A stretch of 15,650 bases of DNA from a virus (taxonomy: Duplodnaviria; Heunggongvirae; Uroviricota; Caudoviricetes), in the IMG/VR virus record IMGVR_UViG_2703718817_000011. The stretch is one strand, 5' to 3'. Below the pieces are notes generated by a model that saw only the letters and a program-made list of their open reading frames with translations, searched no databases and was not told the origin of the DNA. The position numbers and the translations under genes are program-made. Positions 1 through 15,650 of this stretch are shown one piece after another (within the stretch, counting starts at the first letter, position 1; the number at the start of each line of letters is the position of its first letter).

Positions 1-165
1 ATGGCAAAGCCGATCATCACGCTCAATGGCCTAAAAATCGTCATTATGTTGGGAATGCTGGTCATTATTCTCTGCGGTATCCGTTTTGCCGCCGAGATCA
101 TCGTGCCGTTTATTCTCGCATTATTTATTGCTGTTATATATAACTTATCCCGCATAGTGCATTGA
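1..165 (+). pseudogene. tqsA: Truncated 5' fragment of AI-2 exporter gene tqsA (ydgG), interrupted by the inserted element
   Basis: ORF at nt 1 translates [46 protein letters not shown], which matches the TqsA N-terminus from memory; it then diverges (YNLSRIVH) and stops at 163-165 instead of continuing about 340 codons. Confidence 0.55.
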
Positions 166-210
166 TTTAATTAAGCAATTTTCACTGAGAAAGTGCCAAA
201 ATTCGCAAAA

Positions 211-234
211 TGACTACACCAGTGACTACACCGT
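211..234. repeat. Tandem direct repeat, 2 x TGACTACACC on a 12-bp period, about 70 bp inside the left junction
   Basis: tgactacaccag / tgactacaccgt at 211-222 and 223-234, read directly. Confidence 0.5.
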
Positions 235-620
235 TCGGTGCACTGTATGAAACAACGTGGAACAAATAGGCACAAGAAATATAAAGGCGGGTAATTTTAA
301 GGAGGCGTTGCTGTCGATATGGGGATCCCCATAACGGGGCTACCGGATTTTTTTTCCGGTTAACCTTTAATCAGCCAGGTGGGTTTTACATACCCTTGAT
401 CACCGTAATGATGATCCAGATGTGCACCTTTTCCACCAATGGCGGAAAAGCTCCAACCGTAACGATGATCGCTATGGTTGCCTCGATGGTCTGCGTGGTC
501 ATTATGACCATTCAGCCAGTGACCTTAATCAGAATTTTTCGCTAAAAAATGACGTTGGCCACGTCATCCGGAAAGCACAAAATCACGTCGATTTTTAATG
601 AACGGTTAAACCGTCTTTTT

Positions 621-1064: not shown

Positions 1065-2726
1065 TTACACCCCGCTAAATTCTTCCAGTTTCTGGCGGTG
1101 GCTGTCGCTTATATCAAAAGCAAAATCCTCATGCTCTGCCTGGAATGTACCAAACGCCATCAGCGCCGCTACGCTCGGGTCTATCTTGTTCGGTGATTTT
1201 TTCTTGTTCGGCTTGATATTGGCGTTCGCGTCACTCTGCATCACGACGTTACTCATCGACCAGGACAACACCGGATCGCCACGATGCACAATCACCCTGC
1301 GGTTAACAAAAACTTCGAACGATTTCGCCGCCGGACTGAATCTGAGGTAGGTTTGCGGGAACGGCTCCACCTCAAAACCAGCCCCCTGTAATTGCGTCCT
1401 GAGATGCGTGGCGTTCCACGTATCAAAGCCCACCAGCCTGATATTAAATTTCTCCGCATCCTGCATGATGTCATCTCTGATCCGGTCGTAATCAATGCAG
1501 TCACCTGGCGTTGTGCGTATCCAGCCCGCTTTAGCCCACTGGCGATAGACAGCGCGGTTTTTATTGGCGGGGTTCTGTAGCTGGAACTCCGGCAGATAAT
1601 GACGGGAAACCAGCATGATATTTTTACCGACCGGAAAGGCATAGCACACGCTGGAAATATCGCTGGTTGATGATAAGTCCAGCCCCGCGTAACACTCCTG
1701 CCCGTGTAAATCTTCCTCCGTGAACGTTCCGGCACACTCAGCCCATGCGCCGTTACCCATCCACGGGGTAGCCCCCTGGCACCAGATATTAAATCGCTTT
1801 GTCATCATCTCCACCCATTGCGACGGAATACCCCGCGCTTTCTGGATGGTTGAGGCCAGTTTTTCACGATCCACGGAAACATCGATGTTAGGGTTAGCCT
1901 TTATCCACATCGCCGGATCATCAACCTCGTTTTCGTCGTCCAGCTCGTAAATCAGCACAAAAATTGAATCGTTGACCTCTTCGCCGTCCAGGATCTGGCA
2001 GCAATAATCATAGTGCTGTTTACAGGTTGAAACGACGTTACTGCCCGATGTGGTAATGGCAAATAACAGCCCTTCGGGACGTGCGCCCATCCCCAGCTCA
2101 AGCGCGGAATAAACGCCGTTATCGGGGTGTAGGTGGTATTCGTCCACGATGGAAAGGCTGGGGTTTGTTCCCTCGATGGTTGCCGCTTTTGCTGCCAGCG
2201 GCTTTAACAGGCTGTTGCTTTTCGGGTGCATCACCTTGTGGGCCTGAATATTCACCCGCCTGCGTAACGGTCGGGATAAAAGGCACATCTGACGCGCATC
2301 ATCAAAAACGATCCGCGCCTGGTCACGGCTCACCGCTGCGGTGTAAATATCCTGCTGCCCGTTCTCCATAATCAGAAACCAGTTAGCCAGAATCGCGGCG
2401 GTCGTGGATTTCGCATTTTTGCGCGGCACTTCGATAAAGGCGCTCGTGTATTTGCGCCGTCCGGTGGCCTTAACCTTAAAGCCGAGGATGCACGCAAAGG
2501 CGAACTGCTGCCACGGCTCCAGCTCAATGGGTCTGCCACGCATCGGCCCTTTTACGTGCGGGCACACCCTGGAAAAGGCAATAAACCGCTCCACAACCTC
2601 ACGATCGAACGTGTAAAGGGGGCTTTCAAGGTCCGAAAAGTACCGTTTAACGGCCTGTTTCAGCCGTTTACAGGCCGGAATTTTGCCCGTTTTTACGTCT
2701 TCTGCGTACTTATTCCAGGCGGTCAA
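1065..2726 (-). CDS. terL: Terminase large subunit (HK97-type)
   Basis: 553-aa ORF with an N-terminal ATPase Walker A-like segment (VPRKNAKSTTAA) and a C-terminal nuclease-like region; apparent TTG start at 2726 with an AGAGGA SD, overlapping the terS 3' end. Confidence 0.88.
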   Translation of the reverse strand: MTAWNKYAEDVKTGKIPACKRLKQAVKRYFSDLESPLYTFDREVVERFIAFSRVCPHVKGPMRGRPIELEPWQQFAFACILGFKVKATGRRKYTSAFIEVPRKNAKSTTAAILANWFLIMENGQQDIYTAAVSRDQARIVFDDARQMCLLSRPLRRRVNIQAHKVMHPKSNSLLKPLAAKAATIEGTNPSLSIVDEYHLHPDNGVYSALELGMGARPEGLLFAITTSGSNVVSTCKQHYDYCCQILDGEEVNDSIFVLIYELDDENEVDDPAMWIKANPNIDVSVDREKLASTIQKARGIPSQWVEMMTKRFNIWCQGATPWMGNGAWAECAGTFTEEDLHGQECYAGLDLSSTSDISSVCYAFPVGKNIMLVSRHYLPEFQLQNPANKNRAVYRQWAKAGWIRTTPGDCIDYDRIRDDIMQDAEKFNIRLVGFDTWNATHLRTQLQGAGFEVEPFPQTYLRFSPAAKSFEVFVNRRVIVHRGDPVLSWSMSNVVMQSDANANIKPNKKKSPNKIDPSVAALMAFGTFQAEHEDFAFDISDSHRQKLEEFSGV

Positions 2727-3066
2727 GCTCGTCCTCTTCTTCTGTTTCCGGTGGATTTTTACGGCGGCTTATCGGGTCAAAACCGAGCAAAGAGGCCATT
2801 TTTATCATCACTCTTTCAGCGTCGGATTTTGCGCTTAATGCGGGGTTTCTGCTCTCGCCGCCCTGACTGTTAACAATGCTGAACCCGCGCGCCGCAAGGT
2901 CTGCAACGGCTTTCCGGTAAATGGAGTAGTTGACACAATACAGTTCCAGATTGCTCCAGTCGGCGGGGGTCAGGTCTCCCCGTTCCGCAAGCTGCCTAGA
3001 TTTTTCCCGCCACTGCTTCACGGCGATATCATCCAGGTAGGCGGGGGCTTTCGGTGGTCTTGCCAT
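2710..3066 (-). CDS. terS: Terminase small subunit (P27 family-like)
   Basis: 118-aa ORF directly upstream of and overlapping terL; sequence resembles P27-family small terminase subunits (recollection). Confidence 0.75.
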   Translation of the reverse strand: MARPPKAPAYLDDIAVKQWREKSRQLAERGDLTPADWSNLELYCVNYSIYRKAVADLAARGFSIVNSQGGESRNPALSAKSDAERVMIKMASLLGFDPISRRKNPPETEEEDELDRLE

Positions 3067-7653: not shown

Positions 7654-7686
7654 ACAAAAAATAACAAAAAGCCGGATTGCTCCGGC
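7654..7686 (-). terminator. Intrinsic terminator after the perC-like gene
   Basis: GCCGGA-ttgc-TCCGGC stem at 7671-7686 followed on the minus strand by UUUUUGUUAUUUUUUG. Confidence 0.55.
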
Positions 7687-7692
7687 TGTTGA

Positions 7693-11757: not shown

Positions 11758-12307
11758 GGCGCACCTCCTGACGAATACGGGCGGCAAATACAGCAACACA
11801 ACCGGACGGGCAACGGTTACGCGCTTCGCGTTCCGTCCAGGCGGTTACGTGGATGATTTGATGGTCTGACGCGCCAAAGGCAATAAAGCGCCAGATAAAG
11901 GCTGTTTGAGAATGTACGAGGGCAGGGGTAGTAGCCATGTTGGCAGCCTCCTCAGTGTGGTTAAGATAACCGCCACGCAAAAGGCTAATTTCGCTGGTGG
12001 CGGACTGTACAGGGTTAGCCTTACCGGACACTGAAGAAACCGGCGCGGATTGCTCCGCCCCCGTACAGCCCACCATTGATAAGGTGTGACTATGCGGCAC
12101 AAAAAAACACGCGGGACGCGTGCTGTGCGCTTCAGTTGTTTTCAGGAGGCTAATCCCGACACCCGTTTTATGAGGTGCGCGGGAATCATAGCTATTTTCG
12201 ACACTGGCGATCAACTGGTTTTTTTCTCCGATATTCAGGGCCAGAAAACGCCACACAAAGGCAGTTTGTGTGTGTACAAGGTGTGGTATATGATTTACAG
12301 CAACCAT
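11750..12307 (-). CDS. Icd-like (P4 host cell division inhibitor-like) protein with tandem duplicated domain and internal start
   Basis: ATG 12307 with an AGGAG SD; two copies of an LVH(T/S)QTAF(V/I)WRF segment; second in-frame ATG at 11938 has its own GAGGAGG SD; Icd-like call from recollection of P4-like island proteins. Confidence 0.5.
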   Translation of the reverse strand: MVAVNHIPHLVHTQTAFVWRFLALNIGEKNQLIASVENSYDSRAPHKTGVGISLLKTTEAHSTRPACFFVPHSHTLSMVGCTGAEQSAPVSSVSGKANPVQSATSEISLLRGGYLNHTEEAANMATTPALVHSQTAFIWRFIAFGASDHQIIHVTAWTEREARNRCPSGCVAVFAARIRQEVRHD

Positions 12308-12398
12308 AACGGCTCCTAGTTTACGTTGTTGGTTAGAAGCCCTGCGAGTGGTAACGACACTTGCGGGGCTTTGTCTTTTCATCGATTACCTTGATAAA

Positions 12399-12487
12399 GG
12401 TGTCAGCCACTATATTAGTAACGGGTGTCAGCCACGTCAATAGTGTTTTTCCGTTTTCTTGTGTGTATACTGTCAGCCACCTAATAA
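12399..12487. promoter_or_regulatory. Divergent promoter/operator region with three direct repeats of GGTGTCAGCCAC
   Basis: Repeats at 12399-12410, 12424-12435 and 12470-12480; minus-strand TTGACG-17nt-TAATAT (12435-12440 and 12412-12417) with a repeat in the spacer; plus-strand TATACT (12466-12471) or TTGTGT-17nt-TAATAA. Confidence 0.45.
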
Positions 12488-12501
12488 CGAGGAAATCAGA
12501 T

Positions 12502-12681
12502 ATGGCAACAAAAGCAGTTAATGCAAAATCCAAAAAGCTTGAGGCTCGAGTACCACACGCAATAGCTGATGCTGTAGAAAATTTAAAGGAAGATGGCGAA
12601 AGTACAGGGCAATTTATCGTTTCGGCACTTGAAGGCGAGATCAAACGCCGCCAGCGCCGCAAGGCCAAAGAATCAGAATAA
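12502..12681 (+). CDS. Ribbon-helix-helix (CopG/Arc-like) DNA-binding protein, 59 aa
   Basis: ATG 12502 with a GGAA SD; predicted beta-strand/helix/helix layout (KLEARVPHAIADAVENLKEDGESTGQFIVSALEGEIKRR); divergent from the replication operon. Confidence 0.55.
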   Translation: MATKAVNAKSKKLEARVPHAIADAVENLKEDGESTGQFIVSALEGEIKRRQRRKAKESE

Positions 12682-12738
12682 TCACTATCAGCGCCGTGGT
12701 GTGAGGTACTACGGCGCATTGCTTTACAGGGCAGTATC

Positions 12739-12966
12739 ATGACCAACAACACACTATCACCAATACAAGACACGCAAACGCAAGATGATGAATTCATCCG
12801 GCAAAGGCAGTCAGAAGCCTGCGCCAGACTTGAGGAAGAACTAACCAGAACAAAAATACCACCACCAGCGCCGCGCTTAGTGCCACCAGAAAAATTTGCC
12901 CTTGAAGATTTTGTCGATAAATACCCACGGCGGCTTAAATCCGGCAAAAACCGACCGCCAGGATGA
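12739..12966 (+). CDS. Small protein of unknown function (75 aa), partner of the upstream RHH gene
   Basis: ATG 12739 follows the conserved 44-nt hairpin element; paralogous to 13423..13626. Confidence 0.45.
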   Translation: MTNNTLSPIQDTQTQDDEFIRQRQSEACARLEEELTRTKIPPPAPRLVPPEKFALEDFVDKYPRRLKSGKNRPPG

Positions 12967-13084
12967 GTGCACAAAACCGAACTATGAAACGGATTATTCC
13001 GTTTCCGGGGCGTTTGTGTGTGTATAAAGAGTAAGCTATGCTCTTTTATAGCCATAATCGTTCCTCAATTAATGGTTTGGTTAG

Positions 13085-13128
13085 ACGCCCCGTATGTGTT
13101 CCCATCACTGCGGGGCGTTGTTTTTTGT
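13085..13128 (+). terminator. Intrinsic terminator after the first RHH module
   Basis: 8-bp GC-rich stem ACGCCCCG / CGGGGCGT followed by TGTTTTTTG. Confidence 0.5.
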
Positions 13129-13185
13129 GCTAGTTGTGTGTAATGTGTATATACACATAAACACATTATATGGGGTGTAATTGAC

Positions 13186-13365
13186 GTGTCAACACACAAA
13201 AATGAAAGGCGTGGTAATCCTCCTTTCCAGTTCCGTTTAGATCCTGACTTACGGGAAAAGATGGAAAAAGCACAACAACAAGACGGTGATGACTCTTTAG
13301 CTGCTTGGATAAAACGAATAATCCGAAAAGAATTACAGCAACGCGGTATTGAACCCAAAGAATAA
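13186..13365 (+). CDS. Arc-like ribbon-helix-helix protein, about 59 aa (start uncertain, GTG proposed)
   Basis: Not in the ORF track (below 60 aa with a non-ATG start); hand translation gives VSTHKNERRGNPPFQFRLDPDLREKMEKAQQQDGDDSLAAWIKRIIRKELQQRGIEPKE, resembling P22 Arc; GGGGTG SD-like 8 nt upstream. Confidence 0.5.
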   Translation: MSTHKNERRGNPPFQFRLDPDLREKMEKAQQQDGDDSLAAWIKRIIRKELQQRGIEPKE

Positions 13366-13422
13366 AAAACATCAGCGCCGTGGCGTGAGGAACTCCGGCG
13401 CATTGCTTTACAGGTACACACA

Positions 13423-13626
13423 ATGACCAATAAAGAATCAACCAATACACCATCGCAAAAAACGAACAGAGAGCACGAAAATATGGCGCTCGAGCATGAA
13501 TCAGAAAGATTCGCTCCATGCGCTTTTGTCCTTGATGAGTTTCTAAAAAAATATTCACGTTCTGAACGGATGAAAATGGCAGCACAATACGGCCCCAACA
13601 AGCAAGGTAATTGCCCACCAGCCTGA
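13423..13626 (+). CDS. Small protein of unknown function (67 aa), paralogue of 12739..12966
   Basis: ATG 13423 follows the second copy of the 44-nt element; both proteins start MTN and share a C-terminal F(A/V)L(E/D)(D/E)F..KY.R motif. Confidence 0.45.
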   Translation: MTNKESTNTPSQKTNREHENMALEHESERFAPCAFVLDEFLKKYSRSERMKMAAQYGPNKQGNCPPA

Positions 13627-13699
13627 TAGCGGCTATCATTCCCGTGCTTATGTTTGGGATCACATACACATAAGGCGCAGCAGGTTAATTGTTCAGAAA

Positions 13700-13728
13700 G
13701 GCGGCTCCATATCGGGGCCGCTTTTTTT
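13700..13728 (+). terminator. Intrinsic terminator after the second RHH module
   Basis: GCGGC / GCCGC stem followed by seven T. Confidence 0.5.
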
Positions 13729-13869
13729 ATGCCTGAAAAACCCCAATTTTGTTGTTTTTCAGTTTCACCAGGGCGAACGAATCCCCGCCCACGTTCGGGC
13801 GCATATTCAATCTTCATAGTTATATCTCTGTATTAGTGGATGTGTGGCGACTGTGTGCCGCCAGTCTTT

Positions 13870-14058
13870 TTAGTGAACTGCCTTGCAGCTATCCTTCCAG
13901 GCCAAAACCTCAGATAAAGACCAGCCAACAGAACGCCCACCAAGTTTACGACGTGATGGGAATTGTCCGGCCTTTTCCAGGCGGTAGCGGCATGAGCGGC
14001 TAAGGCCTGTTAGCTTTTCGCATTCTTTTTCACGTATAAACCGATCAGTGCTTAACAC
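13870..14058 (-). CDS. alpA: AlpA-family phage regulatory protein (excisionase/transcriptional regulator-like)
   Basis: 62 aa, apparent GTG start with an AAGGGGG SD; winged-helix excisionase-like sequence (LTGLSRSCRYRLEKAGQFP ... GWSLSEVLAW); downstream of and co-directional with int. Confidence 0.78.
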   Translation of the reverse strand: MLSTDRFIREKECEKLTGLSRSCRYRLEKAGQFPSRRKLGGRSVGWSLSEVLAWKDSCKAVH

Positions 14059-14219
14059 TATTGCCCCCTTTCGTTTCTTAAAGAGTTATTTCGTGTTCTA
14101 TTGCGTTGGGATGTGTCTGATTGTGTCAGGATGATTCAGAGTTGGCAAATGTTGGTGTCGCATGGTTTACAGAAAGAGGAATAATCAGGATAAAATCATT
14201 TAAATTCATGTTAATACAA

Positions 14220-14249
14220 AGGCATAAAATCTTGTTTTATGCCTTTTTT
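14220..14249 (+). terminator. Strong stem-loop plus T-tract in the int-alpA intergenic region
   Basis: 10-bp stem AGGCATAAAA / TTTTATGCCT, 5-nt loop, then TTTTT; could act bidirectionally to end int transcription. Confidence 0.45.
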
Positions 14250-14340
14250 CGCACACTTTAACGCGTAATTCACTAATGTATAAAAAACCAGCTGAGCATT
14301 AAAAATCAGCAACTTACAAATCTGTATTCTTTTTGGCCTC

Positions 14341-14390
14341 TTGTTCGTGATTGTGTCACGTTGTTGCACATTGTTTCTCGTTGTATCTGT
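14341..14390. repeat. Five helically phased decamers each beginning TTGT
   Basis: ttgttcgtga ttgtgtcacg ttgttgcaca ttgtttctcg ttgtatctgt with an exact 10-bp period, between int and alpA. Confidence 0.55.
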
Positions 14391-14432
14391 GCACTTATCC
14401 AGTATGCGCATACTGAAAAAACACGAAAAAAA

Positions 14433-15650
14433 TTATTTTATTCTGGTTACTGGTAGCGTGGTTACGTTTTCATGTGTTCCCGCCAGTATCTCCAACCGCT
14501 CCACCCACATATCAAGCGCATTGCGTTTCGCATCAATATAGCGGGAATGGTTGTACACGCGTTGCATTCCTGGCATCTGGTGGCCTGTAAGCTGCTCCAC
14601 GACGTGAGGATCAACGCCTAAATCGTTCAGCATGGTTGTAAAGGTGCGCCGGATGTCATGCAATGACCATTGAGGGTGTTTTAGCCTCCTGTGCGCTAAT
14701 CTGCCGTACTGCGATACGCTAGCCTCCTGTTTCACTTCCCCCAGTAATAAGCCCGTGTGCCTGTTCTGGTCCACCAGCCGCGTGACGAACGGCAGGATCG
14801 CTTCCGGTATGGGCCGGAATATTGCAACCTTCGTTTTGCTGTGCTCCTTCGGAACGGTCCATAGCATTTCGGTAAAATCCCACTCGCTGATCTCCGATAA
14901 CCTCAGTTCTACCGTCCTGGCTCCGAAGACAATCAGGAGGCGGATTAACGCGACGTAGTAAGGAGAAAATATTTTTTTATCCAGCGCCTGCAATAACTCG
15001 CCCAGTTCTTTGGTGCTTAAGACACGTTCGCTTATATCCGGTTTTTTCCCAACGTCCGCCACGTTCAGATCATCGAGAACGTTGCTGATTGCAAAGCGCC
15101 GCCTCCGGCAGAACTTAAGCGCCTGCTTGCATGTCTGTAGCACGAATCCGGCAGTAACAGGTGTTCGCTTTGCCACCTGGTCAAAACAGGCCAGCCAGTG
15201 CCGTAGCTCGCATTTATCCAGCGGCATAGCGCCAATGTACTGTATTACGTGATTATTAAGTCGCCTTTTCAGGGCGATATAATCCACGCGGTTTTCCTTT
15301 ACGTACGACTCAAGCCAGTAGGTGAGCGCATCGCCAACCGTTACCGGCTTTAACGCTTCCTGTACGGCGTAATTCATCTCATGGCGTGGATTTTTCCCCT
15401 CCGCCAGCCATGCGCGACACTGGGCGGCTTTTTCCCTGGCTGCTTTCAGGCTCAGATCAGGATAATTTCCCAGCTTAATACGTTCCGGTCGTGTCTCTCT
15501 TCCCGTTCCTGCCCTGTAAGTGAAATACCAGGTTAATTTCCCTGATGTTAAATATTTCACGCTCAGATTTCCGCCATCGCTATAAAACGTGTTTTTCTCC
15601 GCTGGCTTACCATGAAGTTTCCTTAGCAAGGTATCGCTCAGTTTGTTCAT
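14433..15650 (-). CDS. int: Tyrosine-type site-specific integrase (phage/P4-like family)
   Basis: 405-aa ORF whose start codon is the last three bases of the window; C-terminal catalytic signature HDIRRT ... H ... Y and an N-terminal arm-binding-like domain. Confidence 0.9.
   Translation of the reverse strand: MNKLSDTLLRKLHGKPAEKNTFYSDGGNLSVKYLTSGKLTWYFTYRAGTGRETRPERIKLGNYPDLSLKAAREKAAQCRAWLAEGKNPRHEMNYAVQEALKPVTVGDALTYWLESYVKENRVDYIALKRRLNNHVIQYIGAMPLDKCELRHWLACFDQVAKRTPVTAGFVLQTCKQALKFCRRRRFAISNVLDDLNVADVGKKPDISERVLSTKELGELLQALDKKIFSPYYVALIRLLIVFGARTVELRLSEISEWDFTEMLWTVPKEHSKTKVAIFRPIPEAILPFVTRLVDQNRHTGLLLGEVKQEASVSQYGRLAHRRLKHPQWSLHDIRRTFTTMLNDLGVDPHVVEQLTGHQMPGMQRVYNHSRYIDAKRNALDMWVERLEILAGTHENVTTLPVTRIK

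Follow-up and report, generated by a model that had tools for sequence, protein, structure and literature searches.

The window analyzed here, a stretch of 15,650 nucleotides, begins with the 5' end of tqsA and continues as a capsid-forming PICI (cf-PICI) of ~15.5 kb, and its positions 138 to ~280 are the integrase-distal attachment-site arm of that element in tqsA. Judged from the sequence, it is very probable that this region is a functional att arm. The best overall explanation for its repeats, to which we assign a probability of roughly 0.7, is that a tandem pair of TGACTACACC would provide integrase (Int) sites and a phased set of AACAA decamers would provide sites of the AlpA/Vis type. 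For the parts of this reading, binding of the TGACTACACC pair by Int is likely, and binding of the decamers by AlpA stands at about even odds; the two families, one with a 12-bp and one with a 10-bp unit, probably serve different proteins. An earlier note on this DNA had expected integrase arm-type or excisionase sites at this location, and a second arm, a circular attP, the conservation of the repeats, the domain content of Int, and a layout like that of P4 all support such predicted sites, the evidence being that of position, conservation, and analogy. The coordinates of the features are listed in Table 1.

Table 1. Features of the window and of its predicted attachment-site arm
Feature	Position	Strand	Remarks
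tqsA 5' fragment (AI-2 exporter)	1..137	+	Identical to K-12 tqsA through 137
Core identity TGCTGTTAT, 9 bp	129-137	.	Three-way alignment of left junction, right junction, and intact K-12 tqsA
Core-adjacent cassette ATATAACTTATCCCGCATAGTG	138..159	.	In tqsA-targeting elements only; other sequence in sister elements elsewhere (16 distinct distal arms aligned)
IHF-like site AATCAATGCACTA	155..167	-	One mismatch to WATCAANNNNTTR; consensus match
Tandem 12-bp units AATGACTACACC (209-220) and AGTGACTACACC (221-232)	209..232	+	Putative arm-type sites for the Int N-domain, integrase-distal arm
Three head-to-tail decamers, AAACAAcgtg GAACAAatag GCACAA	250..275	+	Putative array for an AlpA/Vis-type factor
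Terminase large subunit (terL)	1065-2726	-	
Terminase small subunit	2710-3066	-	
HNH endonuclease, portal, prohead protease, major capsid		-	
PerC, SSB, RepA/AAA_25 helicase, Ash-family protein		-	
Internal array GAACAAcgtgGAACAAccacGAACAA	7621..7646	+	Directly follows the perC terminator (7670-7687) and precedes the capsid operon by about 170 bp
alpA-like gene, 62 aa	13870..14058	-	Candidate decamer binder; Pfam Phage_AlpA, E 5e-18; P4 Vis 47% identical, E 4e-17
Internal array, five phased ACAA decamers	14341..14386	-	Between int and alpA, 283-328 bp ahead of the alpA start
P4-family tyrosine integrase	14433..15650	-	Window ends at codon 5; promoter region and second arm lie beyond the window

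Interrupted gene, element, and left arm

tqsA is broken at about codon 46, and the reading frame continues into element DNA, where it closes at a TGA (163 to 165), leaving a TqsA cut after about 45 residues (window 1 to 165). The partial tqsA of E. coli strain 00-3076 carries the annotation "pheromone autoinducer 2 transporter." Since TqsA is truncated and in-frame stops precede the downstream part of tqsA at the right junction, carriers have an inactivated AI-2 exporter. The right junction is absent from the window and was read from the 00-3076 element (L001; 99.7 to 99.9% identical), where TGCTGTTAT occurs at L001:33668-33676, preceded by GATAAAA. Comparison with an uninterrupted tqsA and with the right junction, as proposed in the earlier note, located the core att at TGCTGTTAT, with the element boundary where it had been assumed to be, and the strand-exchange region falls within these nine positions. 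The label "attL" used there holds only as a position in the window; the junction is integrase distal and hence attR-like. Prophage convention puts int at the left, as in lambda and KplE1.

Next to the core, positions 138 to 159 are a site-specific cassette, given that, for sister elements at other loci, the match to the window begins only at positions 156 to 160. The IHF-like site (155 to 167) sits inside the conserved block CATTGATTTAATTAA (160 to 174), and the IHF consensus is perfect in the phoQ-type (AATCAATGGCTTG) and L007-type (AATCAATGCGTTA) arms, as read from the sequences; these are likewise consensus matches. An Rfam search of positions 1 to 800 gave no RNA family, and a promoter and terminator scan of positions 100 to 800 gave nothing persuasive.

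The TGACTACACC sequence occurs exactly twice in the window, at 211 to 220 and 223 to 232, with a start-to-start distance of 12 bp; the pair reported earlier at 211 to 234 is therefore real and consists of two exact copies, but it ends at 232. When both strands were searched, the octamer ACTACACC was found in two copies in the window against 0.23 expected, a number that was reached in 4 of 200 shuffles. By itself the pair is weak evidence, as some exact 10-mer was repeated at an offset of 10 to 24 in 21% of 1,000 Markov-simulated windows. Measured from the core, the pair starts ~71 to 74 bp into the element and the last decamer finishes at 138 bp, in agreement with the range of 70 to 130 bp inside the tqsA junction given before (pair at 74 bp and decamer end at 138 bp).

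The AACAA decamers are also real and phased, and their number is three (AAACAA, 250 to 255; GAACAA, 260 to 265; GCACAA, 270 to 275; exact 10-bp period) rather than the two that had been placed at 251 to 270. The statement that they belong to the same family as the internal arrays was borne out: the window has exactly three chains of at least three phased copies, namely, that in the arm and the two internal arrays of Table 1, whereas shuffles give 0.005. A two-unit decamer pattern had eight matches against 0.55 expected, and none of 200 shuffles reached eight. No 8-mer other than ACAACGTG is shared by the two arms and the two internal regions. In relatives, the array upstream of alpA has four to seven copies, with the phasing retained and the spacers variable. 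The layout of head-to-tail repeats ~1 helical turn apart in an att arm, present in both arms, is that of directionality-factor sites. No sigma-70-like promoter was detected at the 7621-to-7646 array. The orientation of the decamers relative to the downstream gene is opposite at alpA and at the capsid operon, a point against the best explanation.

Other sequence elements were seen beyond the decamers. A near-perfect palindrome at 315 to 336 (CGATATGGGGATCCCCATAACG; 10 of 11 arm positions pair), followed by ACCGGATTTTTTTTCCGGT, is kept by the tqsA and phoQ lineages in their distal arms, and in part by the clpS lineage. The pentamer GTCAC is present in four copies with an exact 10-bp period at 621 to 655 (TTGTCACGGTGTGTCACTGGTTGTCACTCTCCGTCAC), in noncoding DNA that separates the att arm from the first gene; it belongs to a different motif family. 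At 711/712, a segment of 183 bp found in all near-identical relatives is missing from the window, and this gap looks like a repeat-mediated deletion, as it is located between two direct repeats of ~40 bp (GCGCATTTTTGCGCTATCGGGAATATAAAACAGTTACCGC).

The genes of the island are on the minus strand. Its assignment to the cf-PICIs is based on the ORF map, the annotation of the near-identical L001, and the description in 10.1101/2022.09.08.507074: (i) an int-alpA-rep set is accompanied by the element's own terminase, portal, protease, and capsid genes; (ii) there are no tail or lysis genes; and (iii) the size is about 15 kb. The terminase subunits, HNH, portal, protease, and capsid are the gene set shared with the EcCIEDL933 family, and Pfam matches include Terminase_4, HNH, and AAA_25. 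The region from 12333 to 13817 (minus strand) holds two ORFs of 240 and 250 aa with no Pfam or PADLOC match; it may be a variable cargo slot, as L001 has small plus-strand genes there instead. The region of the Ash-family gene (11993 to 12178, minus strand) contains two Rfam hits above the gathering score, C4 antisense RNA (11993 to 12080, 75 bits) and isrK (12102 to 12178, 62 bits). Within terL, TCTTGTTCGG (window 1184 to 1211) is repeated 18 bp apart and includes the reverse complement of CGAACAA, probably by chance.

Second arm, excised forms, and conservation

The full int gene and its upstream arm were read in L001. This integrase-proximal arm carries the same TGACTACACC pair in the same orientation, 23 bp upstream of the int ATG. 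Its sequence runs from CAT (the int start) through 23 bp to AGTGACTACACCAGTGACTACACCGATCGTTGCAC...TACAACGTGAAACAAGCTGGAACAAG..., looser AACA repeats, and GATAAAA-TGCTGTTAT; the order of elements on the proximal side of attP is thus the int ATG, 23 bp, the ACTACACC pair, 13 bp, three AACAA-type decamers (L001:33559-33585), and the looser AACA set. On the distal side, the core (TGATAAAA/TGCTGTT...) is followed by the 22-bp cassette, the IHF-like block, the ACTACACC pair, 17 bp, and three AACAA decamers. The module TGACTACACCAGTGACTACACCG-(A/T)TCG(T/G)TGCAC...GAAACAA..GGAACAA is present in direct orientation at window 211 to 265 and at L001:33518-33585. Integration divides attP at the core, and the left junction of the window retains the second pair and its decamers. 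The pairs are located 128 bp before and 71 to 73 bp after the core, and ACTACACC is unlike the core-type TGATAAAA/TGCTGTT, the arrangement of arm-type sites. A weak candidate int promoter (-35 TTCATA, -10 TATATT; consensus match) was noted at L001:33641-33612; with this promoter, the proximal pair and decamers would lie in the int leader, which would fit autorepression of the P4 and KplE1 kind (PMC7286903, PMC2951348).

Excised forms were also found. The IMG/VR metagenomic contig L007 reads through from the proximal arm via TGCTGTTAT to the distal arm, with a variant of the cassette. Its 119-bp terminal overlap makes it a circular assembly of about 10,979 bp, and as it carries both pairs around an intact core, the predicted attP exists as an excised molecule. 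L007 came from a search with the integrase; the exact attP junction of the window type was not found in IMG/VR. A read-through attP was seen for a second lineage in L070 (IMG/VR 3300019373_000108). This contig starts with a host-element junction and ends with an attP read-through, from which we infer that integrated and excised (or tandem) forms were assembled together.

Nearly all copies of ACTACACC in 81 fetched loci form pairs with a 12-bp spacing, which are located at the two ends of the elements and, in every case, on the strand opposite to int. The same octamer pairs surround different cores, those at tqsA, phoQ/roxA, clpS/cspD, and abgR, and also that of L040 (site unassigned). ACTACACC is near-invariant over Int lineages down to ~75% identity and over at least four named insertion sites, while its flanks diverge; the repeats stay with the integrase lineage while the core and target site change, as arm-type sites do. 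With respect to the most distant lineage, that at clpS/cspD (Int ~75% identical), identities are 20/23 and 21/23 for the pair blocks and 18/28 and 18/23 for the decamer blocks, whereas the adjacent arm segments give 35/81, 22/73, 12/27, and 13/25; for the pair of the window, the value is 20/23, and for its flanks 35/81 and 22/73. The phasing of the decamers is kept in that lineage, though their distance to the pair differs. This phylogenetic footprint, which is read from sequence comparison, covers exactly both repeat families that the earlier note had marked.

In all 77 IMG/VR loci, int and alpA are coupled to the arms, physically and evolutionarily, and no other gene is so. The integrase-proximal arm alone is present in 892 of 5,426 complete genomes, and a scan of reference genomes with Int gave a single locus. 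Among the matches listed for a collection-wide search with ACTACACC-N4-ACTACACC, 21 of 177 were in an att-arm context, most of the matches being unrelated coding repeats. Noncoding TTTACTACACCATTTACTACACC pairs were also seen on unrelated viral contigs (L095:2250-2269; also L088, L091, L092, and L098). The pair in L095 lies beyond an unrelated tyrosine integrase gene, 180 bp from its 3' end; this integrase has a weak match to a Tn916-type N-domain. The same octamer may be used as an arm site elsewhere, or these pairs may be a coincidence.

Within the clade, attP has conserved arms and a swapped core cassette (L003:17960-18000 and 33520-33545; L001:33655-33680; L082:18140-18170). In the phoQ type, the core forms a perfect inverted repeat, TGATAAAA-TATGTCC-TTTTATCA, and a third copy of ACTACACC is found within the phoQ cassette (L003:17984).

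Candidate binding proteins and alternative assignments

Int contains the Pfam domain Arm-DNA-bind_3 (residues 8 to 95; E 9.6e-19; 67.7 bits with a cut-off of 27) in addition to Phage_integrase, and thus has the arm-binding N-domain of a cognate integrase. The island also encodes a cognate small factor, a 62-aa protein of the Phage_AlpA family. The ORF at 14211 to 14411, presumed earlier to be AlpA, has no family match, and the alpA-like gene is the one at 13870 to 14058. As int and alpA are passed on together with both arms as a single block, comparison alone does not tell which protein binds which repeat. The confinement of ACTACACC to att points to Int as the partner of the pair, and since only the decamers recur at internal regulatory regions, they are most likely AlpA/Vis-type sites.

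The octamer is invariant within the clade and leaves nothing to covary with the Int N-domain across lineages; the distant P4 has a different repeat at the corresponding positions. The bases flanking the octamer do vary (AGTG in the tqsA type, ATTA or ATTG elsewhere), and they had the look of covarying between the two arms. In the natural hybrid L026/L182, however, a tqsA-type N-domain and proximal pair are combined with a phoQ-type distal pair. As this hybrid mixes the types, the flank variants reflect linkage and not specificity, and they lend no added support to coadaptation with the Int N-domain.

The hybrid integrase (L026:10001-11227) is of the tqsA type in residues 1 to 55 and of the phoQ type in the rest, and the element is inserted at phoQ/roxA. 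No copies of it were found in complete E. coli genomes. The idea that target choice tracks the whole core-binding segment of Int (121 to 210) was weakened by EcCICFT073, which has the phoQ site and a largely tqsA-like segment; by comparison with EcCICFT073, a handful of Int residues (about 129 to 248) track the target site.

EcCICFT073, the prototype Gram-negative PICI, resides at phoQ/roxA and differs from the window element in its core cassette (AAATATGTCC) and replication gene. It carries the same two arms with ACTACACC pairs and AACAA decamers, and its Int and AlpA are 91% and 95% identical, respectively, to those of the window. Transfer of EcCICFT073 depends on int as well as alpA, and its induction on AlpA; overexpression of AlpA leads to int-dependent excision, and AlpA activates PalpA but not Pint (PMC6092414). 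Such AlpA-driven excision with no induction of int would be expected of an excisionase that acts directly through sites on the att arms, and the arms of EcCICFT073 together with these AlpA phenotypes suggest a direct role of AlpA at att. Counting against this, AlpA was inert on the EcCICFT073 Pint fusion (PMC6092414) despite the decamers in that arm. In P4, Vis regulates late promoters and binds attP DNA (PMC2603039, with reference to Cali 2004 and Polo 1996). In general, the sites of directionality factors are repeated directly with a spacing of one helix turn, and those of phage 186 occur at att as well as at promoters (PMC7498355). An AlpA homologue of the PICMI satellites was proposed to be part of the excision complex (PMC10803314), and the papers on PICMI and EcCIMP1 leave the role as regulator or excisionase undecided (PMC10803314, PMC11773190).

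On this basis, the Arm-DNA-bind_3 N-domain of Int would bind the ACTACACC units while the C-terminal domains hold the core, bridging arm and core, with IHF bending the DNA in the complex as in the lambda and P4 intasomes. The AlpA/Vis-family protein would polymerize head to tail on the 10-bp-phased decamers and bend the arms, and bending of this kind would permit formation of the attL x attR excision complex. From the decamers that precede alpA and the capsid operon, the same AlpA protein would also be able to drive transcription. Int probably represses its own gene, as the integrase-proximal pair is in the int leader/promoter region.

Alternatively, the pair may be an Int site with a different partner for the decamers, a regulator of the PerC or Ash family or a host protein, in which case the decamers would have no role in directionality. 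This assignment we regard as unlikely. One array is directly downstream of perC, the lineages that keep the arrays also have PerC, Ash, Icd-like, and DUF4222 genes in common, and the activity of Pint in EcCICFT073 is unchanged by AlpA (PMC6092414). However, in the 77 IMG/VR loci only int and alpA follow the arms, AlpA belongs to the Vis/TorI family of excisionases, it activates its own promoter region, which holds arrays (PMC6092414), and its PICMI homologue has the proposed place in excision mentioned above (PMC10803314). Exchanging the two partners, so that the decamers are the Int arm-type sites and the ACTACACC pair binds AlpA or another factor, for example as an int operator, is quite improbable. 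The recurrence of the decamers upstream of alpA and the capsid operon, where a role for an integrase is not known, speaks against the exchange, as do the head-to-tail 10-bp arrays, which are a signature of directionality factors (PMC7498355), the restriction of ACTACACC to att arms, and the match in position between the 12-bp tandem pairs and the annotated arm repeats of P4. What it could account for is that the decamers are on both arms and more numerous, like the five arm sites of lambda, and that the proximal ACTACACC pair is just upstream of the int ATG, a possible operator position.

There is very little to be said for the decamers as replication iterons of the P4 crr kind, bound by the replication initiator of the island. 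The P4 crr (alpha-protein iterons GGTGAACAG with a period of about 10 bp) does start about 120 bp past the distal arm repeats, and the decamer motif includes GAACA, but arrays are also located inside the integrase-proximal arm, between int and the core. An iteron role was rejected on the ground that the arrays are kept with three unrelated replication proteins, RepA/AAA_25 in the window, DUF927 in L082 and L083, and a primase-family protein in EcCICFT073; the arrays did not covary with the Rep type. Hardly credible at all is the idea that the repeats have no function, being a chance pair or the passive relic of a duplication of the region upstream of int. About a fifth of windows are expected to contain one exact 10-mer in tandem, and the two modules resemble paralogous copies; still, the octamers are near-invariant where the surrounding arm DNA drops to 30 to 50% identity, and the repeats are present on both arms in every lineage examined as well as in an experimentally mobile relative. 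Int sites in the pair and AlpA/Vis-type sites in the decamers thus remain the preferred reading.

Comparison with known systems and implications

P4 and the window element have integrases of the same domain family (Arm-DNA-bind_3), with int transcribed away from att. The P4 GenBank record lists 12-bp "attP arm sequence repeats," with one tandem pair located 15 bp ahead of the int ATG, the core 112 bp beyond this pair, and the other tandem pair 53 bp after the core; the corresponding distances in the window element are 23, 128, and 71 bp. All of the paired 12-bp arm repeats are in one orientation in both elements. The P4 repeat is (A/G)TGCCCCC and that of the window element ACTACACC, a difference expected for integrases that are 23% identical. 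P4 has extra inverted and internal repeat copies, which are absent from the window element, and its neighboring repeats are replication iterons (crr). Its target is a tRNA-Leu gene (PMC7286903) with an annotated core of 20 bp, whereas the window element has a 9-bp identity in a protein-coding gene. The P4 Int represses its own promoter (PMC7286903).

In KplE1 (CPS-53), as in the window element, the int-side att arm overlaps the int promoter/leader, the sites for IntS and TorI overlapping PintS; the factor gene is transcribed apart from int; and short motifs form tight blocks, the three TorI sites being 2 nt apart, like the decamers here (PMC2951348). The motifs themselves differ, KplE1 having arm sites that contain TAAA and TorI sites of the GTTCG type. 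The latter are on the int-proximal attL (PMC2951348), whereas the arrays of the window element are on both arms and at internal promoters. For 186 Apl and P2 Cox, direct repeats spaced 10 to 11 bp apart are located at att and at promoters, and one small protein both excises and regulates (PMC7498355); this is the logic that we propose for the AACAA arrays. Apl and Cox belong to a different protein family and are repressors at the lysis-lysogeny switch, whereas the PICI AlpA is an activator (PMC6092414).

An att arm of this kind belongs to a well-known class and would be no surprise to specialists in site-specific recombination. In the literature searched, the att sites of PICIs and cf-PICIs appear solely as attachment sites or short core repeats; for EcCICFT073, att is given solely as an attachment site, with no arm-type or AlpA sites described in PMC6092414 or 10.1101/2022.09.08.507074. 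A broader proposal, tentative and somewhat short of even odds, is that the AACAA/ACAACGTG decamers are the missing cis-sites of AlpA, as excisionase on both arms and as activator of alpA and the capsid operon, and that the attP of this widespread integrase clade is a modular scaffold with invariant arms and a swappable core cassette of ~22 to 35 bp, which has retargeted it to at least five chromosomal sites. If true, AlpA sites of this kind would explain int-dependent excision without raised int transcription.

PICIs and cf-PICIs are common in E. coli, and insertion at the site described here destroys the AI-2 exporter gene tqsA. The most useful by-product of the analysis is a testable map of candidate AlpA sites. 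The predicted attP (arm pair, decamers, core, IHF-like site, arm pair, and decamers) yields defined fragments and point mutations, and it bears on the role of AlpA, as transcription factor, excisionase, or both (PMC6092414, PMC10803314, PMC11773190), and on how AlpA and Int may cooperate in excision.
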